A stretch of 12,342 nt of DNA, taken from an uncultured Isosphaeraceae bacterium. Its GTDB lineage: Bacteria > Planctomycetota > Planctomycetia > Isosphaerales > Isosphaeraceae. The stretch lies in NCBI GenBank assembly GCA_964624465.1, contig CAZUZD010000181.1:1-12342 (forward strand), given 5' to 3'. This document shows positions 1 to 12,342 of this stretch, one piece after another. The translations under genes were made by a program, and so were the position numbers. The notes beneath the pieces were generated by a model that saw only the letters and a list, made by a program, of their open reading frames with translations, was not told the DNA's origin and searched no databases. Every line of letters starts with the position of its first letter. Position 1 is the first letter of the stretch.

Positions 1-393
1 CCAGTTCAGGGCGTTGCCGGCACGCATGCCGGTCGCGGTGCCAACCACATCGTCAGCACTACCGGTGTAGCGGGTATCGCTTTCCTTCTTCATCCGCCAT
101 AGGCGCAGCGACTCCTCGCCATCGTCATAGCGGAAGGTCTCGTGCAGCGTGCCGGTATTGCCGTCCCACGCACCGACCATGTCGACCTCGAAGCGGCGCA
201 GCACCCGGCCCTTGCGGTCCTGGACGATGCCCCAGGCGGTGACCTTGCCGTCGAAATATTCCTCCATACGCAGTTCCGGCTTGGCGCCCGCGTAGATGTT
301 CGGTTCGATGCTCATGCAGCCTCCCAGGGCGAACAGCGTAAACAGCAGTGCCGAGACTTGCCCGCTACGGGCTAGAACGAAAACACGGGACAT
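1..393 (-). CDS. Partial DUF3833-like lipoprotein. The first 131 codons are present; the 3' end lies beyond the window start.
   Basis: Reverse-strand translation from the ATG (revcomp of 391-393) gives MSRVFVLARSGQVSALLFTLFALGGCMSIEPNIYAGAKPELRMEEYFDGKVTAWGIVQDRKGRVLRRFEVDMVGAWDGNTGTLHETFRYDDGEESLRLWRMKKESDTRYTGSADDVVGTATGMRAGNALNW. This has a signal peptide with an LGGC lipobox. The EEYFDGK..AWG.VQDR.G.V.RRF.VD..G.W.G..G.L.E.F.YDDGE pattern is as I recall it for the DUF3833 family. A perfect GGAGG (plus strand cctcc, 400-404) sits 6 nt upstream of the ATG. There is no in-frame stop before the window edge. GC and codon usage (cgt, gaa, tat, cta) differ from the rest of the window. Confidence 0.55.
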   Translation of the reverse strand, partial: MSRVFVLARSGQVSALLFTLFALGGCMSIEPNIYAGAKPELRMEEYFDGKVTAWGIVQDRKGRVLRRFEVDMVGAWDGNTGTLHETFRYDDGEESLRLWRMKKESDTRYTGSADDVVGTATGMRAGNALNW

Positions 394-576
394 GACGAGC
401 CTCCTGCAAGGAGCTGTTCCCTCCGCGTTGGCTCGGTGGTGTCGGGGCTCAGCCAGATGGCGATGAACGCGTTACCGAAGGCGGGGTCCGGGATGGTGCC
501 CAGGTAGCCCTCGGTGCCAAAAAAGTGGGAGACGCCGTCTTGATCGACTTGCAGCAGCAGAACATCCCCCGGCTCG

Positions 577-1131
577 ATGTCGGGCCAGATCGCACGGATC
601 TGGCGGAGCCAGCCGGTCTTCCAGCGCCGGAAGTTCTTCAAGGGCCGGCCGATCCGGGGCGCCGACATCAAGGACCTCTCCTGGCTCGACCCCACCGGCG
701 GCGAGATGACCGACGAGGCCTGGAACGCCGGCTACGTGAAGTGCCTGGGGATGCAGCTCGCCGGCGACCTGATCGGCGACGTCGACGAGCGTGGGCAGCC
801 GATCGTGGGCGAGACGGTGCTCATCCTCATGAACGCCCACTGGGAGCCGCTGCCCTTCGCCCTGCCAGCCCCCGCCGCCGGCCACCACTGGGAGCATCTG
901 GTCGACACCTCCGACCCGACCGCCACGGCCACCTTCCTGGGCGAGTCGGCCAGCTACCCGCTCAAGGACCGCAGCGTGGTCGTGCTCCGCCAGCGCCGGA
1001 AGGACGAGCCGGCCGGCCTGGTGCTCTCGGGCCAGCAGACCGAGCAGATCCTCGAAGGCCGGCTCCAGCCCGCCGGCCCCAGCGGCGGCGTGCCGGCCAC
1101 CTCCACCCTGGCCAACACCCGCGGCACCTGA
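577..1131 (+). pseudogene. glgX: 5'-truncated glycogen debranching enzyme (GlgX/TreX-type) remnant: C-terminal ~185 codons only
   Basis: Translation IARIWRSQPVFQRRKFFKGRPIRGADIKDLSWLDPTGGEMTDEAWNAGYVKCLGMQLAGD..GQPIVGETVLILMNAHWEPLPFALPA..WEHLVDTSDP matches the conserved GlgX C-terminal region (HPVFRRRRFF-GRPI-G...W..P.G.EMT.EDW...F..L....DD.F.L.FNAH.E...F.LP). The frame is closed by a TGA at 541-543. None of the three upstream plus frames contains GlgX-like sequence. A full GlgX is ~700 aa, so the N-terminal catalytic domains are absent. Confidence 0.55.
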
Positions 1132-1292
1132 GCCCGGCCCCCGATCCGGCCGCGTCCCGACCCCCCGGTTCCCCCCCACCATCGCCCTCGCCCGCGCCGC
1201 TCCACACCGGCCGGGCGGGGGCGATTGCGTGTCCGGGTCCGGTTCCGGCGGCACGAACCCGCCGGTCGGCCGGGCGGGGCGTCCCGAGACGC

Positions 1293-1301
1293 TGTTTCCC
1301 G
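1293..1301 (+). promoter_or_regulatory. Copy 1 of shared upstream motif TGTTTCCCG, 117 nt upstream of the QueC-like operon start
   Basis: The exact octamer GTTTCCCG occurs only 3 times on the plus strand of the window (here, 8725-8732 and 9611-9618), all in upstream intergenic regions of plus-strand genes. Given the base composition, fewer than 0.1 occurrences are expected by chance. Confidence 0.3.
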
Positions 1302-1312
1302 ATCGACAGCCG

Positions 1313-1342
1313 TTGGGTATCGTGGTCCCTGAATGTTATGGT
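1313..1342 (+). promoter_or_regulatory. Possible sigma70-like promoter (TTGGGT, 18 nt spacer, TATGGT) in a locally AT-richer stretch
   Basis: TTGGGT at 1313-1318 and TATGGT at 1337-1342, with the ATG at 1419 (~70 nt leader). The match to consensus is weak; Planctomycete promoters are poorly defined. Confidence 0.15.
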
Positions 1343-1347
1343 GTGCT

Positions 1348-1361
1348 CGATCGATCGATCG
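1348..1361. promoter_or_regulatory. Perfect 14-nt palindrome CGATCGATCGATCG, i.e. (GATC)3, just downstream of the putative -10: candidate operator
   Basis: The sequence is self-complementary as read. It lies in the leader of the QueC-like operon, 47 nt downstream of the TGTTTCCCG motif. Confidence 0.25.
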
Positions 1362-1418
1362 GGTGCGGTCCCGACCCGCCGGTCGGGCCGCTCCCCGGAC
1401 CGGCTCGCGTGATCCGCG

Positions 1419-2708
1419 ATGCAGATTCACCCCCCCGAATTCACCGTCGCCAACGACCGCTGGACCGCGTCGGCCGTGATCGAGAGCGCCTCGGGCCAGC
1501 GCCAGACGCTCTGGTATCGCGGGGCCTGCTCGGCGGCGGTGGCCGTCAGCCGGCAGTCGGACCCGTTCGTCGTCGCCTCGGTGTTCCTGGCGATGCGCCG
1601 TGGGGAACCGCTCCGGATCGCCGGGCCGGTGTCCCCCTCGCTGCTGGGGAACCTGGAGGAGTTCATCGCCGCCTGGTCGATGCTCAAACCCGCGTCGTAC
1701 CGGCGGATCGCGATCGAGGCGGACACGCTCCGGGAACCGCCGGCGGCTCGCACCGGCAGCGCCGTGATGGGGTTCTCGGCGGGGGTTGACGCCTGCTTCA
1801 CCGCCTGGCGGCACACCCAGGACCGCGCCGGCTTCCAGCGGCTCCCCCTGGCGGCCGGGGTGCTGGTCCACGGCTTCGACATTCCGCTGGATCAGCCCGA
1901 CATGTTCCAGGGGGCCGCCGCGCGGGCCCGGGCGCTGCTGGAGAGCGTGGGCCTGGAGTGCCTCACGGTCGCGACGAACCTGCGACAGTTCACCGGCGAG
2001 TGGTCCGACACGCATGCCGCCGCGCTGGCCTCGTGCCTGCACCTGCTCCAGCCCGGGTTCGCCACCGGGGTCATCAGCGGCTCGTACCCGTACGAGGATC
2101 GGGTGTTCGTGCATGGCTCGTGCCCGCTGACCGACCGGCTGCTGGGCAGTCGCCGGTTCCCGATCGTGCACGACGCCGCCCAGGCCGGCCGGCAGGCGAA
2201 GATCCGGGACCTGGGGCACTGGCCCGAGGTCCGGCAGCACCTGCGCGTCTGCTGGCAAGGCGCGCAGAAGGATCGCAACTGCGGCCGCTGTCACAAGTGC
2301 GTCAACGCCATCCTCAACTTCCGGATCGCCGGCCATGGCGCCCTGCCGGCGTTCCAGCCCGAGGCCACTCCCGCCCAGATCGCCCGCGTGCCGCACCATA
2401 CCGACACCGTGATCGGGATCTCGCGGCGGACGCTCGCCGACGCCCGCCGTGCCGGCTACCACGACCCCGGCCTCGCGGCCCTGCGACGCGCCGTCAGGCG
2501 AAGGTGGCTCCAGCCCGCCTGGTGGCGGTACCGGCTCGGCGGCTGGCGCGATCGGCTGCGCGGTCGCCTGGTTCCGGCCCTGAAGCGGCACTGGCGGCGC
2601 ACCAGCTTGCCCCTGCCACCGGCTCGCATTTTGCCGCTGACAGTCGACAATGGAGGCCCCGATCCCGGTGCTCGTCATGGGAGGGGCGAGCCCGGTTCGC
2701 GACGATGA
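1419..2708 (+). CDS. QueC-like PP-loop ATPase/amidoligase paralogue A (429 aa) with an ~115-aa N-terminal extension and a basic Trp/Arg-rich C-terminal tail
   Basis: GC3 is above 90% and amino-acid composition is normal. The PP-loop-like segment VMGFSAGVDACFTAW resembles QueC VVFSGGQDSTTCL. The C-terminal zinc motif VCWQGAQKDRNCGRCHKCVNAIL (C-x9-C-x2-C-x2-C) is nearly the same as the QueC motif CYNG...GCGHCAACNLR (C-x8-C-x2-C-x2-C). The protein is ~68% identical to the CDS at 3772..4962, and its N-terminus aligns with that paralogue from Met1. There is no obvious SD. Confidence 0.8.
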   Translation: MQIHPPEFTVANDRWTASAVIESASGQRQTLWYRGACSAAVAVSRQSDPFVVASVFLAMRRGEPLRIAGPVSPSLLGNLEEFIAAWSMLKPASYRRIAIEADTLREPPAARTGSAVMGFSAGVDACFTAWRHTQDRAGFQRLPLAAGVLVHGFDIPLDQPDMFQGAAARARALLESVGLECLTVATNLRQFTGEWSDTHAAALASCLHLLQPGFATGVISGSYPYEDRVFVHGSCPLTDRLLGSRRFPIVHDAAQAGRQAKIRDLGHWPEVRQHLRVCWQGAQKDRNCGRCHKCVNAILNFRIAGHGALPAFQPEATPAQIARVPHHTDTVIGISRRTLADARRAGYHDPGLAALRRAVRRRWLQPAWWRYRLGGWRDRLRGRLVPALKRHWRRTSLPLPPARILPLTVDNGGPDPGARHGRGEPGSRR

Positions 2709-2744
2709 TCCCGCGGCATCCAGGAACTTCAGGCCGGAGCCGGC

Positions 2745-3746
2745 ATGCGGAATCCGTATCTGCTCTTCCTGGGTGACGCCCGGGACGCGCTGGCCGCCAA
2801 GACGGCGCAAGGGCTGGCCGACTGGCGACCCGGGTGGTGCGTGGGCCAGCTCCGGCTGCCGGGCTGCCAGGCGGACGTGGGCCTCCCGGACCTGACGATC
2901 GCGGCGGCGGCCGCGGCCGGGGCCCGGACCCTGGTGATCGGCCTGGCCAGCTCGGGCGGGGCGCTGCTGCCCCACTGGGTGCCCACCTTGCTCCGGGCGC
3001 TCGACGCGGGGCTGGACCTCGCCAACGGCCTGCACGATCGGCTGAGCGACCATCCCGAGATCGCCGCCGCGGCCGGGCGGCTGGGGCGGACGCTCCACGA
3101 CGTGCGCCACTGCGGCCAGACCTTCGCCACCGGCACGGGCCGGAGGCGATCCGGGCGCCGGGTGCTGACGGTGGGGACCGATTGCTCGGTCGGCAAGATG
3201 TACACCGCCCTGGCGATCGAGCGGGAGCTGCGGCGCCTGGGTCGCAGCGCCGACTTCCGCGCCACCGGTCAGACGGGCATCCTGATCGCCGGCCAGGGCA
3301 TCGCCATCGACGCCGTGGTGGCCGACTTCATCGCCGGGGCCGCCGAGGCGCTCGCGCCCGATCACGAGCCGGAACACTGGGACGTGATCGAGGGCCAGGG
3401 CTCGCTGTTCCACCCCGCGTTCGCGGGCGTCACGCTCGGCCTGCTCCACGGCTCGCAGCCCGACGCCCTCGTGCTCTGCCACGAGCCGACCCGTCAACAC
3501 CTGCGGGGCCTGCCCCAGGCGCCGGTGCCCGACCTGGAGGCGTGCGTCGAGCCCTACCTGCAAGCCGCCCGGCTCACCAGCCCCGCGTGCCGGCTGGCCG
3601 GCGTGAGCCTGAACACCCGAGGGCTCGACCCCGAGGCCGCCCGTCGACTGATCGCCGAGGTCGAGGACCGGCTGTCCGTGGTCGGTACCGACCCGCTGCG
3701 GTTCGGCGTGAGTCGGCTCGTCGAGCGACTCCTCGGCGATCGGTGA
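2745..3746 (+). CDS. DUF1611-like two-domain protein (Rossmann-like N-domain plus a BioD/CobQ-like P-loop C-domain with GTDCSVGKM); DgcN-like
   Basis: The ORF is 333 aa with GGAG 5 nt upstream of the ATG and a 36-nt gap after the upstream gene. The motifs LFLGDARDALAAKTAQGLADWRP, VGTDCSVGKMYTAL, ATGQTGIL.AGQGIAIDAVVADF and EGQGSLFHPAFAGVTLGLLHGSQPDALVLCHEP match my memory of DUF1611 (PF07755/PF17396). The family assignment is from memory, not from a search. Confidence 0.6.
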   Translation: MRNPYLLFLGDARDALAAKTAQGLADWRPGWCVGQLRLPGCQADVGLPDLTIAAAAAAGARTLVIGLASSGGALLPHWVPTLLRALDAGLDLANGLHDRLSDHPEIAAAAGRLGRTLHDVRHCGQTFATGTGRRRSGRRVLTVGTDCSVGKMYTALAIERELRRLGRSADFRATGQTGILIAGQGIAIDAVVADFIAGAAEALAPDHEPEHWDVIEGQGSLFHPAFAGVTLGLLHGSQPDALVLCHEPTRQHLRGLPQAPVPDLEACVEPYLQAARLTSPACRLAGVSLNTRGLDPEAARRLIAEVEDRLSVVGTDPLRFGVSRLVERLLGDR

Positions 3747-3771
3747 CCCGCCCCCGCGCGCAGGATGATCC

Positions 3772-4962
3772 ATGAAGGTTCACGCTCCCGAGTTCACCGT
3801 CTCCGAAGGCCACGGGGTCGCGTCCGCCGTCCTCGAGACGGACGATGGCCGCCGCCGGTCGCTCTGGTACCGGGTGCCCGAGTCGGCGGCCGGGTCCGTG
3901 AGCCGACAGGCCGATCCGTTCGCCATCGGCGCGGTGTTCCTGGCCATGATTCGCGGCGAGCGGCTGCGGATCGCCGGCCCGGTCTCTCCCTCGCTGCTGG
4001 GGAACCTGGAGGAGTTCATCGCCGCCTGGTCGATGCTCCGGCCGGCCGACTACCGTCGCATCGCCATCGAGGCGGACACCCTCCAGGAGCCGCCGGCGTC
4101 CCGGAAGGCCGGCGCCGTGCTCAGCTTCTCGAGCGGCGTGGATGCCTGCCTCTCGGCCTGGCGGCACACCCAGGACCTGGCCGGCTACCAGCGCCTGCCG
4201 CTGGCCGCCGGCGTGCTGATCCATGGCTTCGACATCCCGCTCGATCAGCCCGCGACCTTCGGGCGGGCGGCCGTGGGCGCGCGGGCCCTGCTGGCGAGCG
4301 TCGGCCTGGAGTACCGGACGATCGCCACCAACTTCCGCGACCTGCCCGGCGAATGGTCCGACACCCATGGCGCCGGGCTGGCCTCGTGCCTGCACCTGCT
4401 GCAGCCGGAGTTCGCCCTCGGGGTGATCGGCAGCAGCTACACCTACGCCGAGGGCGTGGTCCTGTACGGCTCGTGCCCGCTGACCGATCCGCTGCTGGGC
4501 AGCCGCGGGTTCCCGATCGTGCACGACGCCACCCCGATGAGCCGGCAGGAGAAGATCCAGGCGCTGGGGGCCTGGCCCGAGGCGCGCCAGCACCTGCGCG
4601 TCTGCTGGCAGGGGCCGCACCTGGACCGCAACTGCGGCCGCTGCTTCAAGTGCCTGAACGTGATCCTCAAGGCCCGGGTCGCCGGCCTGGGCCGGCTGGC
4701 GGCGTTCCCGGTCGAGGCGACGCCCGCGCGGATCGCCACGATCCAGCTCCGCGCCGACCTGACCCTCGCCAGCGCCGGCCGCACCCTGGCCGACGCCCGC
4801 CGGGCCGGCTACCACGACGCCGGGATCGCCGCCCTGCGGTTCAACGTCTGGACCACCCGCCTCCGCCCCTTCTGGTGGCGGTCGCGCCTGCGCACCTGGC
4901 GCGAGCGCCGGCGCGACCGGCAGGCCCGGGCTGCCGGCCACCCGGCCGGATCCGCCGACTGA
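3772..4962 (+). CDS. QueC-like PP-loop ATPase/amidoligase paralogue B (396 aa)
   Basis: GGA SD 6 nt upstream, with a 25-nt gap after the DUF1611-like gene. The PP-loop-like segment is VLSFSSGVDACLSAW and the zinc motif is VCWQGPHLDRNCGRCFKCLNVIL. The conserved tail is RRAGYHDAGIAALR...RLRPFWWRSRLRTWRERRRDR. Architecture and ~68% identity match 1419..2708. Confidence 0.8.
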   Translation: MKVHAPEFTVSEGHGVASAVLETDDGRRRSLWYRVPESAAGSVSRQADPFAIGAVFLAMIRGERLRIAGPVSPSLLGNLEEFIAAWSMLRPADYRRIAIEADTLQEPPASRKAGAVLSFSSGVDACLSAWRHTQDLAGYQRLPLAAGVLIHGFDIPLDQPATFGRAAVGARALLASVGLEYRTIATNFRDLPGEWSDTHGAGLASCLHLLQPEFALGVIGSSYTYAEGVVLYGSCPLTDPLLGSRGFPIVHDATPMSRQEKIQALGAWPEARQHLRVCWQGPHLDRNCGRCFKCLNVILKARVAGLGRLAAFPVEATPARIATIQLRADLTLASAGRTLADARRAGYHDAGIAALRFNVWTTRLRPFWWRSRLRTWRERRRDRQARAAGHPAGSAD

Positions 4963-5029
4963 CACGGCGTCGGGTCGGCGCGCCGGGCCCACGCTCGTCG
5001 TCCGGGCCGCGTTGCCCGGATTCTCGGAC

Positions 5030-5064
5030 GGCCGACCGCCGCCGGGTGCTGGCGGTGGTCGGCC
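5030..5064. terminator. 14-bp GC-rich hairpin (one G-U pair, 7-nt loop) between convergent genes: candidate bidirectional terminator
   Basis: GGCCGACCGCCGCC (5030-5043) pairs with GGCGGTGGTCGGCC (5051-5064), leaving loop GGGTGCT. It lies 68 nt after the stop at 4962 and 42 nt from the GH2 stop at 5106-5108. A relatively U-containing tract (GTCTGGTGTGGTGG) follows on the plus strand. Confidence 0.35.
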
Positions 5065-5105
5065 GTCTGGTGTGGTGGCGAACCCTGCGGGGCGGACCGG
5101 GCGGG

Positions 5106-8100
5106 TCAGTCGCCCTTGAGCACGGTCAGGCCCAGGTCGATGCCCTGGCCGCCGCCGGTCTGGCGGCAGCGGACGGCGATCTGGTTCGGGCCCGGCTTGA
5201 AGGCGGCGCGGGCGCGGCCGTCGAGCACGACGTCCTCGTAGGCGGTGATGTAGCCGGGGCCGACGTACACCCGCTTGCCGTTGACGTAGAGGTCGACGTC
5301 CTCGTCGTGGAACAGCCGGAGCATCAGCAGGTCATTGTCGCCCAGCTCGGGCACGTCGATGGTCGTGCGGAGCCAGATCGTCGGCGTGTTCCAGGGGGTG
5401 TGCACGGCCACGGCGGGCGTGCCCTCGGTGCCGAAGCCGGCCGGGCCGCGCTTCCAGGCGGAGTCGTCGAAGCCAGGCTCGATCCAGGCGCCGACCTCGG
5501 GCTCGTCGGTGGTGTAGGCCCAGGTCGTCGCCTGGTCGCGGCCGGCCTCGCCGGAGGGGAGCACGCCCACGCGCCGCGAGGCCATCGTCTCGACGGCCGG
5601 GCTGAGGCCGGCGTCGACGCCCAGGTCGGCGGGCAGGTCGGCCTCGGTCTCCAGGAACAGGGTCGGTTCGATCGGGTAGGCCCCGGTCTCGGCGCCATAG
5701 ACCGCCAGGCCGCCGTGCGGGCCGCTGTCGTCGCTGGTGCCCAGGCGGAGGATCAGGGGGCTGCCGGCGGCCAGGTCGGCGATCGCGGTGTCGGGCAGGG
5801 GGTGGGCGGCGTCGATCAGGTAGCCGAAGCTGCCGTGCTCCTGGCCCTTCAGGTGCGAGAGCACGCCGCGGGCGTCGGCCGGGTCATCGGCCAGGGCCAC
5901 GCCGGCGACCCGACGGCCGTTGAGGGTGATCAGCACGCCCGAGGGGTGCTTGCGGACGTCCGTTTGAGGGTAGTCCTGCGCGTTGCGCCGCAGGGCCCAG
6001 TCCACCTTCTCGCGGCCCGCCTTGGCGGCCAGCTCGGCGCGGATCCGGAACGCCTTCGGCTTCGCCTTCACCACCGCCTCGGGCACCTTGAGCTTGTAGA
6101 CGAACGAGCCGTTGCCGCGGCCGTGCGCCTTGCCGTCGGGGAGGCTGAAGCCGTCCGACCAGCGGGCGCTCGAGAACTCGCCGGGGGCGAATCGCAGGGC
6201 GACCGTGTGGTCGTCGATCCGCTCGATCCTGGGCGCCGGCGCCTCGGGCCGCACCACGACGTTGACGAAGTTCGCCGCCAGCCGCTTGCCGGTCCTGTCC
6301 TCCAGCACCAGGGCGACGGCGCCGACGAACGGCTCGCCCAGCTTGAAGGCGACCCGCTTCTGCGGCGTGACGCTGTAGGGGGCCCACTGCACCTCCCGGG
6401 TGCGCGGCTCGATGCCGATCTTCTCGCCCTCGCCGTTGACGCCCGTGACCCACCACTTCAGCACCGGGGCCTCGGTCAGGGTCGAGTAGTGGCTCACGAA
6501 CAGTTCCACGGGGATCAGCTCGCCGACCTTGGCCTCGATCGCCGGCGGGCCGTCGTAGCCGATGAAGTCGGCCCCTTGCAGGTCGGCCGGGGTCATGCCG
6601 GGGACGAAAGCGTCGTAGCCGAAGGTCTTGGGCGTGCGGTCGTAGTTGGCGAAGCCATTGTGTTCCCACTCGATGTCGGTCAGCTCGGTGTAGATGTAGC
6701 CCTGGATCTTGGGCTGCTTGCGGAGCAGGGTGGTCAGGTCGCGGAAGCCCCACGAGATGTCGCGGTCGCCGCTACCGGCCGAGACCGAGCCGTACTCGCT
6801 GTTGATCAAGGGGGCCGAGTTCATCGTCTCGCCCGGGCAGTAGTTGAACGCGCTGCCGGGGGTGCTGCCGGCGACGACGCCGTCGATGTGCCGCTTCGCC
6901 TCGTCGTGGTTGTCGATGTAGAAGTGCCACGAGTTCAGGTCGGTGCCCGCGACGTGGTCGTAGTTGCAGGGGCTGTTGTCCTCGATCAGCCGGGTCGGGT
7001 CGATCTGCCGCATCAGGGCGACCATGTCCTTGACCCACTGCTGCGTGCCCTTGTTCGCCTTGTACTCCTCGGGCGTGCCCAGGCCCCAGGTCTCGTTGAA
7101 GGCGACCCACGAGAAGATCGACGGGTGGTTGCGGTCGCGCGGCAGGATCTCGCGCATGGTCGCTTCCCAGGCCGCCCGGGCTCGCTCGTTCTGGCGCCAG
7201 GTGTTGGGCATGTCCTCCATGATCAGCATGCCGAGCTTGTCGGCCCAGTAGAGCCGGCGGGGCTCCTCGGGCTTGATGTGGATCCGCAGGAAGTTCGTGC
7301 CCATCGTGCGGGCCAGCTCGATGTCCTGCTTGAGGAACTCGTCGCTGGGCGCGGTGTACAGGCCCTCGGGGTTGAACGACTGGTCCAGGGCCCCGCGCAG
7401 GTAGATCGGCTTGCCGTTGAGCAGGACCCGCTCGAACGGCTCGTCGCCGACCTTGCCGCGGGCGATCGTGCGGAGGCCGAGGTAGGTCCGGATCGAGTCG
7501 ACGGCGCCCGAGGGGCTCTTGAGCTCCAGGGTCACGTCGTAGAGGTGCGGCGACTCGGGCGACCAGAGCTTCGCGTTCTGGACCGGGAACATGAAGGTGT
7601 GCACGGTCGGCGCGGCGTTGTCCTCGCCGGTGGCGAACGTGGCCGAGCGGGCGCCGATCTCGGGGGCCTCGCCGGTCAGGCTCACGGTGTACTCCCCCTT
7701 CTCGGCGGGGCGCACCAGCAGGTTCACCTTCACGACGGCCGGTTCGAGCGACAGCGTCGCGGAGCCGAACGCCTCGATGCGCGCCTTCGGGCGTGATTCG
7801 AGCCAGACCGTCTGCCAGATGCCCGAGCTGGGCGTGTACCAGCCCACCTGCTTGCCCGTCGGCAGGCTGGGGTCGGTCGGGTCGAAGGCGCGGACGACGA
7901 CCGTGTTGTCTTCCCCGCGCTTGAGGGCGTCGGTGGCGTCGACCTCGAACGGGCTGTACCCCCCCTCGTGCTCGGCGACCTTGGTGCCGTTGATCCAGAC
8001 ATCGGCCCGCCAGTCGACGGCGCCGAAGCGGAGCCAGACGCGGTCGTCGGCCGGGAACGCGTCGGGCACGCGGACCGTGCGGCGGTACCAGCCGATCTGG

Positions 8101-8447
8101 GGCGTGACGCCCTTGGCCGCGTCGGCCGGGGTCCTGAGCCCGGCCAGGGCGCTCTCCCAGGGGAACGGCACGGCGATCGTCTGGTCGAAGCCGGCGGCGT
8201 CGGGGGCGAACCACTCGGCCTTGAGGCCCTCGTCGCCGGCGTCGAACCGGAACTGCCAGGGGCCGTTGAGGTTCGCCCAGTGCGGCCGCACGGCCGTCGG
8301 GTCGGGATGCTCGGGCCGGGGGATCGCCGCGGCCGGGGCTGTCGCCTGCGCCCCGGACGCCGGGGGCGCCCACGGGCTCAGGATCGCCAGGGCCAGGGCC
8401 AGGGCCAGCACCGGCCGGCTGGCGGCGCGGGGGAGGCGGGGAATCAT
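5106..8447 (-). CDS. Secreted glycoside hydrolase family 2 enzyme (beta-glucuronidase/beta-galactosidase/beta-mannosidase-like), 1113 aa with extra C-terminal beta-sandwich domains
   Basis: The GH2 hallmarks are present: VWINGTKVAEHEGGYSPFEVD (compare GUS HQGGYTPFEAD), the acid/base motif SWVAFNE (compare WSIANEP) and the nucleophile motif INSEYG (compare IITEYG). The likely true start is the ATG at 8447-8445, giving MIPRLPRAASRPVLALALALAILSPWAPPASGAQA, a signal peptide with an A-x-A cleavage site. A GGAG lies 8 nt upstream. The track's upstream extension to 8663 is R/P/G-rich and would bury the signal peptide. Confidence 0.85.
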   Translation of the reverse strand: MIPRLPRAASRPVLALALALAILSPWAPPASGAQATAPAAAIPRPEHPDPTAVRPHWANLNGPWQFRFDAGDEGLKAEWFAPDAAGFDQTIAVPFPWESALAGLRTPADAAKGVTPQIGWYRRTVRVPDAFPADDRVWLRFGAVDWRADVWINGTKVAEHEGGYSPFEVDATDALKRGEDNTVVVRAFDPTDPSLPTGKQVGWYTPSSGIWQTVWLESRPKARIEAFGSATLSLEPAVVKVNLLVRPAEKGEYTVSLTGEAPEIGARSATFATGEDNAAPTVHTFMFPVQNAKLWSPESPHLYDVTLELKSPSGAVDSIRTYLGLRTIARGKVGDEPFERVLLNGKPIYLRGALDQSFNPEGLYTAPSDEFLKQDIELARTMGTNFLRIHIKPEEPRRLYWADKLGMLIMEDMPNTWRQNERARAAWEATMREILPRDRNHPSIFSWVAFNETWGLGTPEEYKANKGTQQWVKDMVALMRQIDPTRLIEDNSPCNYDHVAGTDLNSWHFYIDNHDEAKRHIDGVVAGSTPGSAFNYCPGETMNSAPLINSEYGSVSAGSGDRDISWGFRDLTTLLRKQPKIQGYIYTELTDIEWEHNGFANYDRTPKTFGYDAFVPGMTPADLQGADFIGYDGPPAIEAKVGELIPVELFVSHYSTLTEAPVLKWWVTGVNGEGEKIGIEPRTREVQWAPYSVTPQKRVAFKLGEPFVGAVALVLEDRTGKRLAANFVNVVVRPEAPAPRIERIDDHTVALRFAPGEFSSARWSDGFSLPDGKAHGRGNGSFVYKLKVPEAVVKAKPKAFRIRAELAAKAGREKVDWALRRNAQDYPQTDVRKHPSGVLITLNGRRVAGVALADDPADARGVLSHLKGQEHGSFGYLIDAAHPLPDTAIADLAAGSPLILRLGTSDDSGPHGGLAVYGAETGAYPIEPTLFLETEADLPADLGVDAGLSPAVETMASRRVGVLPSGEAGRDQATTWAYTTDEPEVGAWIEPGFDDSAWKRGPAGFGTEGTPAVAVHTPWNTPTIWLRTTIDVPELGDNDLLMLRLFHDEDVDLYVNGKRVYVGPGYITAYEDVVLDGRARAAFKPGPNQIAVRCRQTGGGQGIDLGLTVLKGD

Positions 8448-8717
8448 GACGGGCGCTCCGTGCTGGGGAGAGGGGAGTGCGCGGGCCGCGCGGGCCCGAC
8501 GGCCCATCCGGGCGGTCGCGCCGGGTGCCGACGGCCGCCGTGAGCCGGGCGCCCTCCGGTGGCGGGGACGCATCGCCCCGAGCCTATCAGACCCTCCCGG
8601 GGGCCGCGAGGGCCGGCCCGGGTGATGCCCGGCCGCCACGACCGGCCGGCGGTGGCACGCCATCTGCCGGCCAACCGCTCACACTCACGCCCCGGCGCGA
8701 GTCAAGCCTTTCGCAGT

Positions 8718-8732
8718 TTGCCCGGTTTCCCG
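8718..8732 (+). promoter_or_regulatory. Copy 2 of shared upstream motif (TTGCCCGGTTTCCCG), 67 nt upstream of the ATG at 8800
   Basis: It is 14/15 identical to 9604-9618 and contains the GTTTCCCG core. It lies in the 352-nt divergent intergenic region. Confidence 0.3.
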
Positions 8733-8799
8733 CGTCGACGCCCTCCCGGGCCGTTGCCGGGGTCCGGGCCCGTCGGAACCACCCAGGAGTCTGCCGCTG

Positions 8800-9495
8800 A
8801 TGAAGACCAGGATGCCCCGCCGCCCCCGTTCCCTGCAGCTCGAGACCCTCGAAGGCAAGGCGCTGCTCGCCGCGGCCGCCACCCGCCTGGTCCTGCCGCC
8901 GGCGCTGATCGGCCCGGTCCAGGTGCGGGCCGCCGTCGCCTCGACGCCGGCCCCGACCGCCGGCCGGGTCTCGGCCCAGCAGGTGGCTGACAACGGCACC
9001 ACCCAGATCACCCACGAGCGGTTCAAGGTGCGCGGCGGCCAGACCAGCTACGACCTGAACCTCAAGGAGGGCGGCTACAAGTTCGACCAGTCGTACGACC
9101 TGACCGTCCGCCGCGTCCGGGGCCAGGTCCAGACCGGGACCCTGACGGCCGCCGAAGCGGCCGGGCTGTTCTACGCGCGCTTCGACGAGCTGTCCACCAA
9201 CGCCATCGCCAACGGCGGCAACACCAACCACGGCGGCCTGACCGGCGGCGACTTCGAGGACATCGAGGTCCGCAAGCAGAACTACAGCATCCGCAACGGC
9301 AAGACGACCTACAACCTCACGTTCCGCTCCGGCGGCTACGAGTTCCAGCAGTCGTACACCCTGAAGGTCCGCCGCGACGGCAACTCGCCCATCACCGGCA
9401 CCCTCTCGGCCGCCGATGCCGTGGGCCTGTTCGTCCAGCGGTTCGACACGCTGGCCACCCAGTACGTCAGCACCCACGGCGCTGGCAACATCTGA
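8800..9495 (+). CDS. Small secreted protein (231 aa) with a Planctomycete-type N-terminus (RRPRSLQLETLEGKALLAAA) and two tandem ~87-aa domain repeats; function unknown
   Basis: AGGAG 10 nt upstream. The N-terminal R-rich segment followed by L.LE.LE...LL is the motif seen on many Planctomycete secreted proteins. Internal repeat 1: TSYDLNLKEGGYKFDQSYDLTVRRVRGQVQTGTLTAAEAAGLFYARFDELST. Internal repeat 2: TTYNLTFRSGGYEFQQSYTLKVRRDGNSPITGTLSAADAVGLFVQRFDTLAT. They are ~60% identical. Confidence 0.75.
   Translation: MKTRMPRRPRSLQLETLEGKALLAAAATRLVLPPALIGPVQVRAAVASTPAPTAGRVSAQQVADNGTTQITHERFKVRGGQTSYDLNLKEGGYKFDQSYDLTVRRVRGQVQTGTLTAAEAAGLFYARFDELSTNAIANGGNTNHGGLTGGDFEDIEVRKQNYSIRNGKTTYNLTFRSGGYEFQQSYTLKVRRDGNSPITGTLSAADAVGLFVQRFDTLATQYVSTHGAGNI
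9043..9459 (+). repeat. Intragenic tandem duplication: two ~156-nt repeat cores (9043-9198 and 9304-9459) with a period of 261 nt (87 codons)
   Basis: Protein-level alignment: T[ST]Y[DN]L..GGY[KE]F[DQ]QSY.L.VRR......TGTL[TS]AA[ED]A.GLF..RFD.L[SA]T. The nucleotide copies are also clearly similar. Confidence 0.6.
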
Positions 9496-9522
9496 TCGGA
9501 AACGGAGCGGCGCCCTTGGCCC

Positions 9523-9540
9523 CCGCCCGGCGGCGGGCGG
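9523..9540 (+). terminator. Short GC hairpin (7-bp stem CCGCCCG/CGGGCGG, 4-nt loop) 28 nt after the stop of 8800..9495; weak terminator candidate without a U-tract
   Basis: Pairing read directly from the sequence. There is no downstream T-run, and GC-rich hairpins are common by chance in this composition. Confidence 0.15.
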
Positions 9541-9603
9541 TGTCCCCACCCGGACCCCGCCCGCCGCTCCGGTGGCCGCGGCATGCTTTCCATGTTCCCC
9601 AGA

Positions 9604-9618
9604 TTGCCCTGTTTCCCG
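9604..9618 (+). promoter_or_regulatory. Copy 3 of shared upstream motif (TTGCCCTGTTTCCCG), 177 nt upstream of the flotillin start, in an AT-richer leader
   Basis: It is 14/15 identical to 8718-8732. The TGTTTCCCG core is also at 1293-1301. It is followed by TTGGAT and AAATAT-like elements. Confidence 0.3.
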
Positions 9619-9795
9619 GATTGGATTCTTCCAAATATCCTGAGATGGGAGTCGAATGGCTCTCGATGGTTGCCAGGCTGTCCCCTGTGCGGCCGGTGGG
9701 CCCGCTGGGTCCCGGCCGGGGAGAGCGATCGAGGGACCCGCCCCGTGCGCGGGTCCGGCACCATCGCAGGAGGCCCCCCAATCCGGGGTCAGAAC

Positions 9796-12096
9796 ATGGT
9801 GAGCTTGCTGGGGATCGGCCTGGGCACTGTCCTGCCGATCGCGGCGCTGTTCCCGGGCGACTGGGCCGTCTTCGGCCTGGCCGGGCTGGGGGTCGCCGCC
9901 GTGCTGGCGGTGGTCTTCAGTGGACTGCGTTACATCCCGAACAACCGGGTGGGCATCGTCGAGAAGCTCTGGTCGTCGAGCGGCTCGGTGCCCGAGGGGC
10001 AGATCATGGCGCTGGCGGGGGAGGCGGGCTTCCAGGCCGGCCTGCTCCGCGGCGGCATCCACTTCGGCCAGTGGCTCTGGCAGTACCGGATCCACAAGGT
10101 CAGCCTGGTCACCGTCTCGCAGGGGAAGATCGGCTACGTCTATGCCCGCGACGGCGTGCCCCTGGCGCCCAGCCAGACGCTGGGCCGGATCACCGAGTGC
10201 AAGAACTTCCAGGACGCCGCGGCCTTCCTGATGGGCCCGGCCGAGGATGAGACGGGCGTGATCCGCGGTCAGCGCGGCCGGCAGCGGGCCATCCTGCGCG
10301 AGGGCGTCTACGCCATCAACCTGGCGCTCTTCGTGGTCATCACCGAGCAGTCCGTCTACCGGCTCGAGAATCAGGGGCGCCGCGAGGTCGAGACCCTGCT
10401 CGGCTGGCAGAAGGAGCTGGCCGACCTGAACGCCTTCAACCCGGTCGTCGTGGGCGCCCCGATCGAGGCCCCCGACCCGCTGCGGCCCGGGCACCTGATG
10501 CACACCGACAGCATCGGCATCGTCACCGTGCACGACGGCCCCAGCCTCGGCCCCGGGCAGATCATCGCGCCCGAGGTCGGCACCGAGCGCAACGACAAGC
10601 ACTTCCACAACAACTTCCAGGACTCCGAGGCGTTCCTGGCCGGCGGCGGCCACCGCGGCCGGCAGTACGCGACCCTGACCGACGGCACCTACTTCATCAA
10701 CCGCTGGTTCGCCACGGTCGAGATGATCCCCAAGACCGTCGTTCCGATCGGCTACGTCGGCGTGGTGGTCAGCTACTACGGCCGCGCCGGCCTGGACGTC
10801 TCGGGTACCGGCTTCCGCCACGGCGAGCGGGTGCAGGACGGCGAGCGCGGCGTCTTGACCCGGCCGCTGGGACCCGGCAAGTACCCGTTCAACACGTATG
10901 CCGGCAACATCGTGCTCGTGCCCACGACCAACTTCGTGCTGCACTGGGTCACCGGCCGCTCCGAGAGCCACCGCTACGACGAGAGCCTGCGCTCCATCGA
11001 GATGGTGACCAAGGACGCCTACGAGCCGACCCTGCCGCTGTCCGTGGTCGTGCACATCGACTACGAGAAGGCGCCCAGCGTCATCCAGCGGTTCGGCGAC
11101 GTCTCCAAGCTGATCACCCAGACCCTGGACCCGATGCTCTCGGCCTACTTCCGCGACGTGGCCCACAAGCGGACGATGCTCGAGCTGCTGCACCAGCGCG
11201 ACGAGATCCAGGCCGAGTCGCGCGAGGCGCTGGCCCGGCGGTTCGGGCAGTTCGACATCGAGTGCGTCGACGTCCTGATCGGCAAGCCCGACACGGCCGA
11301 GGCCGGCGGCAAGATCGAGCTGCTGCTCGAACAGCTCCGGCAGCGGCAGTTCTCGGTCGAGCAGCTGGAGACCTACGAGCGCCAGCGCGCCTCGGCCGAG
11401 AAGCTCCAGGAGCTGAACGAGGCCCAGGCCCTGGCGACCATGCAGACGCAGCTGACCAACTCGCGGGTGCAGGTCAAGATCGTCGAGAACCAGGGCGAGG
11501 CCGACCTGGCCAAGGTGCAGAAGGCCGCCGAGGCCGACCTGGCGCGGGCCCGCAAGCAGGCCGAGCAGATGGTCGTCATGGCCGACGCCGAGCTGTCCCG
11601 CTCGCGCAAGGCCGCCGAGCAGACCCTCGTCACCGCCCAGGCCGAGGCCGAGCAGCGCCGGCTCGCCGGCAAGGGTGAGGCCGCCAAGCTCGCCCAGATC
11701 GGCCTGTCGGAGGCGTCGGTCCTGCTCCGCAAGATCCAGTCGTTCTCCGACCCGAGGCTCTACGCCCTCACGCAGGTCGCCGCCCAGCTCGCCCACAGCC
11801 AGCAGCCGCTGGTCCCCCAGCGCGTCTTCATGGCCGGTGGCTCGGCCGGCGGCGGCAACGGCGACGGCAAGTCTGGCGCGGGCGGGGTCGACGCCGCCGG
11901 CGGCCTGTTCGGTATGCTCCTGAGCCTGATGGTCGCTGAGAAGTCCGGCTTCAGCCCCGCCGAGGCCGACCCCGAGCTGACCCGCCTGGCCTCCTACGCT
12001 GACGAGCTGGCCCGCGACCAGCCGATCACCGAGCCGGCCCCGGTCCCGGCCGTGATCCCGACCCCCACCGTCGCGCCGGCCAGCAACGGCAAGTGA
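9796..12096 (+). CDS. Flotillin-like SPFH/band-7 membrane protein (766 aa): two N-terminal TM helices, an SPFH domain, a long Ala/Glu/Gln-rich coiled coil and a Gly-rich C-terminus (YqiK/FloT-type)
   Basis: Starting at ATG 9796 gives MVSLLGIGLGTVLPIAALFPGDWAVFGLAGLGVAAVLAVVFSGL (hydrophobic). This is followed by YIPNNRVGIVEK..., then the heptad-like segment AEADLARARKQAEQMVVMADAELSRSRKAAEQTLVTAQAEAEQRRLAGKGEAAKLAQ, then the tail GGSAGGGNGDGKSGAGGVDAAGGLFGMLLSL, which resembles the E. coli YqiK C-terminus. An AGGAGG lies 22 nt upstream. The track's earlier start at 9583 would add a Cys/Trp/Arg-rich non-membrane extension ahead of the TM helix and would cover the upstream motif. Confidence 0.8.
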   Translation: MVSLLGIGLGTVLPIAALFPGDWAVFGLAGLGVAAVLAVVFSGLRYIPNNRVGIVEKLWSSSGSVPEGQIMALAGEAGFQAGLLRGGIHFGQWLWQYRIHKVSLVTVSQGKIGYVYARDGVPLAPSQTLGRITECKNFQDAAAFLMGPAEDETGVIRGQRGRQRAILREGVYAINLALFVVITEQSVYRLENQGRREVETLLGWQKELADLNAFNPVVVGAPIEAPDPLRPGHLMHTDSIGIVTVHDGPSLGPGQIIAPEVGTERNDKHFHNNFQDSEAFLAGGGHRGRQYATLTDGTYFINRWFATVEMIPKTVVPIGYVGVVVSYYGRAGLDVSGTGFRHGERVQDGERGVLTRPLGPGKYPFNTYAGNIVLVPTTNFVLHWVTGRSESHRYDESLRSIEMVTKDAYEPTLPLSVVVHIDYEKAPSVIQRFGDVSKLITQTLDPMLSAYFRDVAHKRTMLELLHQRDEIQAESREALARRFGQFDIECVDVLIGKPDTAEAGGKIELLLEQLRQRQFSVEQLETYERQRASAEKLQELNEAQALATMQTQLTNSRVQVKIVENQGEADLAKVQKAAEADLARARKQAEQMVVMADAELSRSRKAAEQTLVTAQAEAEQRRLAGKGEAAKLAQIGLSEASVLLRKIQSFSDPRLYALTQVAAQLAHSQQPLVPQRVFMAGGSAGGGNGDGKSGAGGVDAAGGLFGMLLSLMVAEKSGFSPAEADPELTRLASYADELARDQPITEPAPVPAVIPTPTVAPASNGK

Positions 12097-12138
12097 CCAC
12101 TGCCAGCCCCTCGGGGCGGGATCCAAGTTCCACACAAC

Positions 12139-12171
12139 CGGCCCGTCGCGTCCCCCCGGCGCGACGGGCCG
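12139..12171 (+). terminator. 12-14 bp perfect GC hairpin followed by GUUGUUG, 43 nt after the flotillin stop: likely intrinsic terminator
   Basis: CGGCCCGTCGCG (12139-12150) pairs perfectly with CGCGACGGGCCG (12160-12171). The loop is TCCCCCCGG, followed by cggcgttgttgcc. Confidence 0.4.
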
Positions 12172-12342
12172 CGGCGTTGTTGCCGGTGAGCCCGATCTCC
12201 CGACTCCGGCCCACGGCAGCTCCGTCCGAGGCCGCTGGATCCGGGCTCCGCACACGGAACCCGGGCACCCGGGCGGTTCCCGTCCCGTAGGTCGGATGAG
12301 CGGAGCGAAAACCCCCGGGCGGGGGCCCGGGCCGGCTCGGGG

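Follow-up and report, generated by a model that had tools for sequence, protein, structure and literature searches.

Promoters of the sigma-70 family are built from a -35 box (TTGACA), a spacer of about 17 nt and a -10 box (TATAAT). Class II activator sites of the CRP/FNR type overlap the -35 region, and the flotillin operon yuaFGI of Bacillus subtilis belongs to the regulon of sigma-W, an extracytoplasmic function (ECF) sigma factor with the promoter TGAAAC-N16-CGTA. For stress sigma factors of the SigB/SigF type (group 3), the published consensus sequences are GTTT-N14-19-GGGTA in Mycobacterium smegmatis (SigF; PMC4694148) and GTTTAA-N15(+/-2)-GGGTAT in B. subtilis (SigB; PMC9847131), and ECF factors are described as particularly numerous in planctomycetes, among other phyla (PMC7826278). 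A literature search found no experimentally derived planctomycete promoter or regulon motif, and no consensus beyond the sigma-70 comparison. We analyzed a stretch of 12,342 nt from an uncultured Isosphaeraceae bacterium (the complete contig CAZUZD010000181.1 of a metagenome-assembled genome, positions 1 to 12,342; the window in what follows), in which the octamer GTTTCCCG lies upstream of an operon containing a DgcN/DUF1611 gene (site 1), of a gene for a 231-amino-acid (aa) protein (site 2) and of a flotillin-like gene (site 3). Our favored, still tentative reading assigns the octamer to bipartite sigma-70-family promoters, as their upstream (-35-zone) part, at sites 1 and 3 and possibly at site 2.

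A scan of both strands of the window found three exact copies of the octamer, all on the plus strand (1294-1301, 8725-8732 and 9611-9618), and none on the minus strand. The three copies lie in non-coding DNA and have the same orientation relative to the downstream plus-strand gene, with gaps to the start codon of 117 nt at site 1 (ATG 1419), 67 nt at site 2 (ATG 8800) and 177 nt at site 3 (ATG 9796). An earlier note on this DNA had reported the same three coordinates, on the plus strand only, in intergenic DNA and 67-177 nt before starts, and the exact scan agrees with it. Site 1 (TGTTTCCCG, 1293-1301, plus strand) precedes the operon for the 429-aa, DgcN and 396-aa proteins, where it is the proposed -35-zone element. 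Site 2 (TTGCCCGGTTTCCCG, 8718-8732, plus strand) is located in the divergent intergenic region between a GH2 gene and the 231-aa gene, upstream of the latter, and site 3 (TTGCCCTGTTTCCCG, 9604-9618, plus strand) would fall in the -35 zone of a probable flotillin promoter.

Sequence sharing extends beyond the octamer. Sites 2 and 3 are identical at 14 of 15 positions (TTGCCC[G/T]GTTTCCCG), or at 17 of 19 when the preceding CAG is included, and their similarity stops after 19 nt; the longer 14/15 element had also been described before, and our alignment agrees. The nonamer TGTTTCCCG is common to sites 1 and 3, as had been noted, but a TTGG[GA]T box said to follow at both sites is not positionally consistent, since its distance from the end of the octamer is 11 nt at site 1 but 2 nt at site 3. 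TTNCC-like units recur at a spacing of 8-9 nt near site 3 (9587-9632; TTTCC, TTCCCC, TTGCCC, TTTCCC, TTGGA) and near site 2 (8709-8731; TTTCG, TTGCCC, TTTCCC), and these two stretches together hold half of the plus-strand TTT triplets of the window. A degenerate fourth copy (TTGCCCGGATTCTCG, 5012-5026, plus strand, two mismatches) lies between convergent genes, where it abuts a 22-bp hairpin, and probably reflects chance.

Candidate -10 boxes are found at the expected distance from two of the three octamers. The intergenic DNA of the window (1,389 nt) contains five TA dinucleotides and only three plus-strand TAnnnT hexamers, namely TATCGT (1318), TATGGT (1337) and TATCCT (9636). From the end of the octamer, it is 16 nt to TATCGT at site 1 (1318-1323, plus strand, overlapping GGGTAT at 1315-1320) and 17 nt to TATCCT at site 3. 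We estimate the probability of two TAnnnT hexamers at such distances as about 5 in 10,000 for any plausible -35/-10 spacing window.

The operon promoter would accordingly read TGTTTCCCG, 16 nt, TATCGT, and the flotillin promoter TGTTTCCCG, 17 nt, TATCCT, or else 14 nt to a conserved AAATAT. At both sites, the octamer would be contacted by the RNA polymerase holoenzyme, or by an activator overlapping the -35 region. If transcription begins about 7 nt after the -10 box, the leaders would measure about 90 nt (site 1) and about 150 nt (site 3). Site 2 would be a third copy, weaker or differently built, with a leader of about 35-40 nt before the 231-aa gene if it serves as a -35 element. Predicted starts are thus near 1329-1331 (or about 1349 with an alternative promoter, see below), at 9645-9648 and at about 8760. 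What the sequence shows directly is where the copies lie and how they are spaced, that TA and TTT are rare in intergenic DNA, and that an A/T box upstream of the flotillin gene is conserved; from these we infer the promoters, contact with the octamer and the reading of all copies by one factor.

Conservation among relatives supports a promoter downstream of site 3. Flotillin loci were taken from ten relatives, and seven of them (66-79% protein identity) were aligned with the window in an anchored comparison of eight promoters. An A/T box, nAAT(A/C)T, is common to the window and all seven relatives. In the window it is part of AAATATCCT (9633-9641, plus strand), as AAATAT (9633-9638; the proposed -10) overlapping TATCCT; the box is present in all eight promoters, and its AAT is invariant in six aligned taxa. 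A further element, CGAA(T/G)G, follows 10-14 nt past the A/T box in 6/7 relatives, the remaining one (L162) having CGAACA. Its counterpart in the window is the early-leader element CGAATGGC (9653-9660, plus strand), with CGAA.G invariant in six taxa. The A/T box and CGAA(T/G)G are together good evidence for a promoter upstream of the flotillin gene, and because both are conserved in relatives, site 3 can be assigned to the -35 zone (approximately -41 to -30). A conserved upstream open reading frame (ORF) starting from the ATG of CGAATG was considered and rejected, as neither the lengths nor the sequences of such frames are conserved.

Several observations weigh against the octamer as a promoter element. 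Among the seven flotillin orthologue promoters the octamer is not conserved: one has a near-copy, two have a loose resemblance and four have nothing. The near-copy and the two resemblances count in its favor. The near-copy, GTTTTCCT in L162, occupies the equivalent position and is followed by a 12-mer, GGATTCTTCCAA, that is shared exactly with the spacer of the window (GATTGGATTCTTCCAA, 9619-9634, plus strand). The loosely similar words at the site 3 position are GTCTCTCC (L002) and TGTCGCC (L159). L161 has a sigma-70-like TTGGCC there, and nothing similar to the octamer was found at this position in L160, L005 and L130. Upstream of the 231-aa gene, the octamer is missing from L158, the only relative with this gene (66% identity, same divergent GH2 neighbor). 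Across 238 kb of DNA from relatives, the frequency of the octamer is 0.41 copies per 12.3 kb, a background level, and these copies are apparently mostly coding. Within the window, no TA lies between the motif and ATG 8800 at site 2, so that this site has no -10-like box. At site 3, the register from TTTCCC to AAATAT is 2 nt shorter than that from TTTCCC to TATCGT at site 1. Moreover, an alternative promoter of the same operon can be read 19 nt downstream of site 1 (1313-1342, plus strand), in which TTGGGT is separated by 18 nt from TATGGT, the third TAnnnT, with TG before it; this promoter is more sigma-70-like and would put the octamer at about -50. Finally, all our statistics are post hoc, as the feature was singled out by eye among windows of unknown number.

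The earlier note had suggested phylogenetic footprinting as a check, and its outcome, with a near-copy kept in 1/7 flotillin orthologues and the octamer missing in L158, does not favor the proposal made there. The same applies to the idea that the motif couples the three units, which finds no support in L158, in the four of seven flotillin orthologues with nothing similar or in the background frequency in relatives. Site 1 had no close orthologue for footprinting, the nearest homologue of the 429-aa protein outside the contig being at most 47% identical.

Two further features of the relatives were noticed by eye. In L003, the flotillin upstream region (9530-9870) contains long inverted repeats, each arm being about 75 nt long and rich in GAGGAG/CTCCTC, with a core of 150 nt between them; it looks like an insertion of the miniature inverted-repeat transposable element (MITE) type that may have displaced the promoter. 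In L158, a decayed flotillin remnant (...ETLLGWQ...NPVV...DSIGIV...) lies downstream of the 231-aa orthologue (5060-5560), its promoter and N-terminal part missing. It follows that GH2, 231-aa gene, flotillin is the ancestral gene order and that the L158 lineage has lost flotillin.

Compared with the sigma-70 promoter, the putative promoters of the window share some features and differ in others. The octamer is intergenic and faces the gene, TAnnnT follows 16-17 nt on at two sites, and the A/T box is conserved across flotillin orthologues. In relatives, putative promoters recognized by an intergenic TAnnnT often have TTGCCN or TTGACN (TTGCCA, TTGCCC, TTGCCT, TTGACG) 17-18 nt upstream. The local -35 box is therefore best described as a GC-rich TTGACA, of which TTTCCC would be a one-off variant. 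Unlike it, the putative -35 box of the window is TTTCCC (or TGTTTC/GTTTCC, depending on the register), which matches TTGACA at 3/6 positions and lacks the G of TTG; the G...G flanks are identical at the three sites, and site 2 has no -10. The distance from TTTCCC to the -10 candidate is 17 nt at site 1 (TATCGT) and 18 nt (TATCCT) or 15 nt (AAATAT) at site 3. TTTCCC is a single step from TTGCCC, but this step alters the usually conserved G, and the shared G...G flanks exceed a generic -35 box, which hints at something more specific. An identical 8-9-mer with T in place of the G of the relatives' TTG suggests a shared factor, which would not in itself prove co-regulation.

Searches for the same arrangement elsewhere gave little. 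GTTTC-N17-20-TAnnnT had four scattered matches in 227 kb of relatives, with no enrichment. A consensus promoter scan of the window returned no match, its thresholds being ill-suited to this GC content, and Rfam gave no credible match, hence no known RNA family in the window. Two other assignments were rejected. TTGCCC does not work as the -35 box, because the hexamers 17-18 nt downstream (CCCTCC, TCTTCC) are not -10-like, and a sigma-54 reading does not fit either, because there is no GG at -24 before TTGC. In the predicted leader of the DgcN operon (1347-1362), a tandem tetranucleotide, (GATC)x3.5, was seen (ctcGATCGATCGATCGg), and a similar GATCGATCGATC occurs after a GTTTC word in the Isosphaeraceae contig L052.

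The restriction of the octamer to intergenic DNA is largely forced by codon usage. The window has a G+C content of 72%, and G+C at third codon positions (GC3) is about 0.97 (0.95-1.00 within genes). TTT occurs only ten times on the plus strand in 12.3 kb, six of them in the part first masked as intergenic, which makes up 9.5% of the window. The octamer is confined to intergenic DNA largely because TTT forces T at a third codon position, which is rare at about 97% GC3. Where GC3 is this extreme, the mere presence of rare A/T words (TTT, TA) almost suffices to mark a promoter, and 'intergenic only' is therefore no evidence of a regulon there. The three copies could also be a coincidence shaped by composition, in which A/T words of a 72% GC genome survive only in non-coding DNA, mainly in promoters, and neither a common factor nor co-regulation is involved. 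We regard this as somewhat unlikely, but as a serious rival.

The count of the octamer in the whole window is not significant in itself after multiple testing. A first-order Markov model gives 0.21 expected copies per strand and shuffles give 0.34 on both strands, so that the earlier estimate of fewer than 0.1 was too low. As many as 865 other 8-mers have at least three plus-strand copies, and many of them are far more over-represented than the octamer. As the appropriate null, we shuffled the sequences of the three upstream regions with their dinucleotide composition kept. In 53% of shuffles the three regions had at least one 8-mer in common, the real regions sharing two GC-only 8-mers, and when regions 2 and 3 were aligned locally without regard to composition, P was ~0.09. 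These figures are compatible with coincidence, as are the absence of the motif from orthologous regions, its background frequency in relatives and its post hoc discovery in a large scan. On the other hand, a shared 8-mer with at least three A/T in all three regions appeared in only 183/40,000 shuffles (0.46%), and the same sharing plus a 6/7 extension in one pair in 9/40,000 (0.02%). Coincidence also leaves unexplained that two copies have TAnnnT at nearly equal distance and that all copies are oriented alike. Pure chance is an unlikely source of the recurrence in three regions, though the figures are post hoc.

When a genome collection was scanned with TTGCCCNGTTTCCCG, at least 120 single matches were obtained; they were spread over all phyla, at roughly the number that 14 fixed bases would yield by chance. 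Among the matches listed, six were from planctomycetes: two are coding (L012, L052), two are upstream of genes (L010, inside a 5' leader; L011, before a start codon) and two are unclassified.

The resemblance of sites 2 and 3 might instead be a remnant of local duplication, the two 15-mers, 886 nt apart, then being a duplicated promoter fragment or an insertion scar and not selected sites. The two sites bracket the 231-aa gene, and in L002, L159 and L160 a GH2 or Uma2 gene is upstream-adjacent to flotillin, with no 231-aa gene seen there. However, L158 shows the succession GH2, 231-aa gene, flotillin remnant but no repeats, which makes the order old. The pair comes with neither a mobile-element gene nor an inverted repeat, and site 1 is left unexplained; we consider the duplication very improbable. 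A dispersed repeat (repetitive extragenic palindrome-like or MITE-like) was rejected, as the similarity ends after 19 nt and there is no associated inverted repeat.

The extended identity of sites 2 and 3 may point to a second kind of regulation. The 17/19 block, CAGnTTGCCCnGTTTCCCG, could be an operator or activator site bound at the 231-aa and flotillin genes, with a half-site at the DgcN operon, which would result in sigma-independent co-regulation. A pair with the A/T content of this 14/15 (17/19) block was found in 14/1,000 shuffles. The block contains an 8-bp direct repeat, TTGCCC-N2-TTTCCC, within a run of TTNCC units (9587, 9595, 9604, 9612; 8709, 8718, 8726), and it lies at about -49 to -31 of the site 3 promoter, the usual activator zone. 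An activator could also account for site 2 being without a -10, and one motif upstream of several transcription units (three octamers, two of them in 15-mers) would be typical of such a site. The position of the 15-19-mer recalls class II activator sites, but the block differs from these in having no dyad symmetry and no conservation in most orthologues, and a direct-repeat period of 8-9 bp is unusual for known regulators. In addition, site 1 has only half of the block, and the direct repeat is confined to sites 2 and 3; L158 is without the block, and L162 retains only its GTTTTCC part. No regulator gene was identified on the contig among eight products scanned with Pfam, no known RNA family matched, and a text search of the literature for the word gave primer-like matches only. 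We think a dedicated operator unlikely.

Alternative sigma factors were considered for the same sites. All three copies begin with GTTT, and site 1 can be read as GTTT-N17-GGGTAT, a full match to the SigB/SigF consensus; the octamer would then provide the -35 (GTTT), a GGGTA-like -10 would follow, and the three units would belong to a general-stress regulon. Site 2, as GTTT-N19-GGGCC, is marginal, like weak published SigF sites. In contrast, the reading at site 3 is GTTT-N18-AAATAT, in which the G run is missing, as is GGG in its orthologues. The spacers, at 17-19 nt, fall towards the upper limit of the published lengths (usually 15-16), and the resemblance was looked for only afterwards, with many known consensus sequences to choose from. 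We judge this explanation to be quite improbable.

The ECF promoter proposed in the earlier note fares worse still and is, in our view, hardly credible. It draws some plausibility from the abundance of ECF factors described for planctomycetes and from the reverse complement of the octamer, CGGGAAAC, which resembles an ECF -35 box. As in the sigma-W case, a short word lies in the -35 zone before flotillin and envelope-related genes. Unlike in that case, the GAAAC-like word (GGGAAAC) is present only on the strand opposite to the three genes, and no consistent CGT box accompanies it there; the minus-strand reading is ruled out by the orientation and the missing -10 box. The coding strand has no AAC motif (no GGAAC/GAAAC-like -35). 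At sites 1 and 2, CGT starts 19 nt past the end of the octamer (21 nt past TTTCC) instead of at 16-17 nt, and it is absent from site 3. No sigma or anti-sigma gene, and hence no such pair, was identified among the eight products of the contig scanned with Pfam (DUF3833, Chalcone_3, an Isoamylase_C fragment, two family-less paralogues, DgcN, GH2, the family-less 231-aa protein and SPFH), where the earlier note had advised looking for ECF sigma or regulator genes. Of its shared transcription-factor or ECF-type site, the location in transcription-control DNA is supported by TAnnnT 16-17 nt on at two sites and by the conserved A/T box, while the ECF type is contradicted by geometry and strand.

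The sigma-70-family promoters thus remain our preferred reading of the octamer. A bolder possibility, to which we give little credence, is a regulator specific to Isosphaeraceae, either an alternative sigma factor with a GTTTCC-type -35 or an activator acting on CAGnTTGCCCnGTTTCCCG, that coordinates flotillin, the secreted repeat protein and the DgcN operon. If true, planctomycetes would have an envelope or stress regulon that has not been described before. An octamer read by a dedicated factor would offer a first handle on promoter and regulon logic in Isosphaeraceae, and would tie flotillin to a secreted protein and to the uncharacterized DgcN operon. The present value is more modest: three promoters, each with its start site, are predicted in testable form.

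The genes of the window were assigned to frames and strands by GC3, and to families by Pfam and NCBIfam. Exact matches to its proteins were obtained only in Logan contigs of 1-1.5 kb from run SRR13608702, the contig itself being the longest record. Downstream of site 1, a 429-aa protein without family (1419-2708, plus strand, frame from GC3), DgcN/DUF1611 (2745-3746, plus strand; Pfam, and NCBIfam DgcN with 516.7 bits) and a 396-aa paralogue of the 429-aa protein (3772-4962, plus strand; repeat family D1, 68% protein identity) probably form one operon (1419-4962). The 429-aa and 396-aa genes flank DgcN with about 76% DNA identity, and their similarity reaches to 25 nt before each start (1394-2708 and 3747-4962). 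Homologues beyond this pair do not exceed 47% identity and are dispersed among cyanobacteria, Verrucomicrobiota and Acidobacteriota. A QueC-like label given to this operon earlier finds no profile support, as neither protein has a QueC or any other Pfam, NCBIfam or PDB match.

The region of site 2 is divergent, its large neighbor on the minus strand being a GH2 glycoside hydrolase (5106-8447). The longest GH2 ORF starts at 8663, which over-extends the gene by 72 codons; homologues start at the Met at 8447 and favor this position. A probable GH2 promoter is indicated by the extended -10 TGATAGGCT (8581-8589, minus strand). Its TAGGCT (8586-8581) is one of two minus-strand intergenic TAnnnT hexamers and is preceded by TG; the 16-nt block at 8574-8589 is identical in L158, and the equivalent in L002 is TAGTCT. 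This promoter is about 130 nt from site 2, which is therefore not the GH2 core promoter. On the plus strand, the 231-aa protein (8800-9495) has no Pfam family, two internal repeats (family D7) and a planctomycete-type N-terminus. It is followed by the SPFH/Band 7 flotillin-like (YqiK-like) gene (9796-12096, plus strand; Pfam), whose best homologues are from Singulisphaera and Isosphaeraceae genomes (73-79% identity).

At the left end, a DUF3833 gene (1-393, minus strand) runs off the window and is followed by a C-terminal fragment of a chalcone-isomerase-like gene (Chalcone_3; 372-695, minus strand) and by an isoamylase/GlgX-like C-terminal fragment (Isoamylase_C; 577-1131, plus strand), all three assigned by Pfam. 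G+C is only 0.64 in 1-695, where DUF3833 and the C-terminal part of the chalcone-isomerase-like gene butt against the GlgX/isoamylase fragment, and the region around 600-690 has the look of a chimeric join made in assembly, or of a rearrangement. The hairpin at 5024-5070, situated between the convergent 396-aa and GH2 genes, is perfect over 22 bp and G+C-rich (-47 kcal/mol, z = -7.4). It probably serves as a bidirectional terminator, one lacking a T run. Past the end of the 231-aa gene, at about 9529-9568, there is another strong hairpin.

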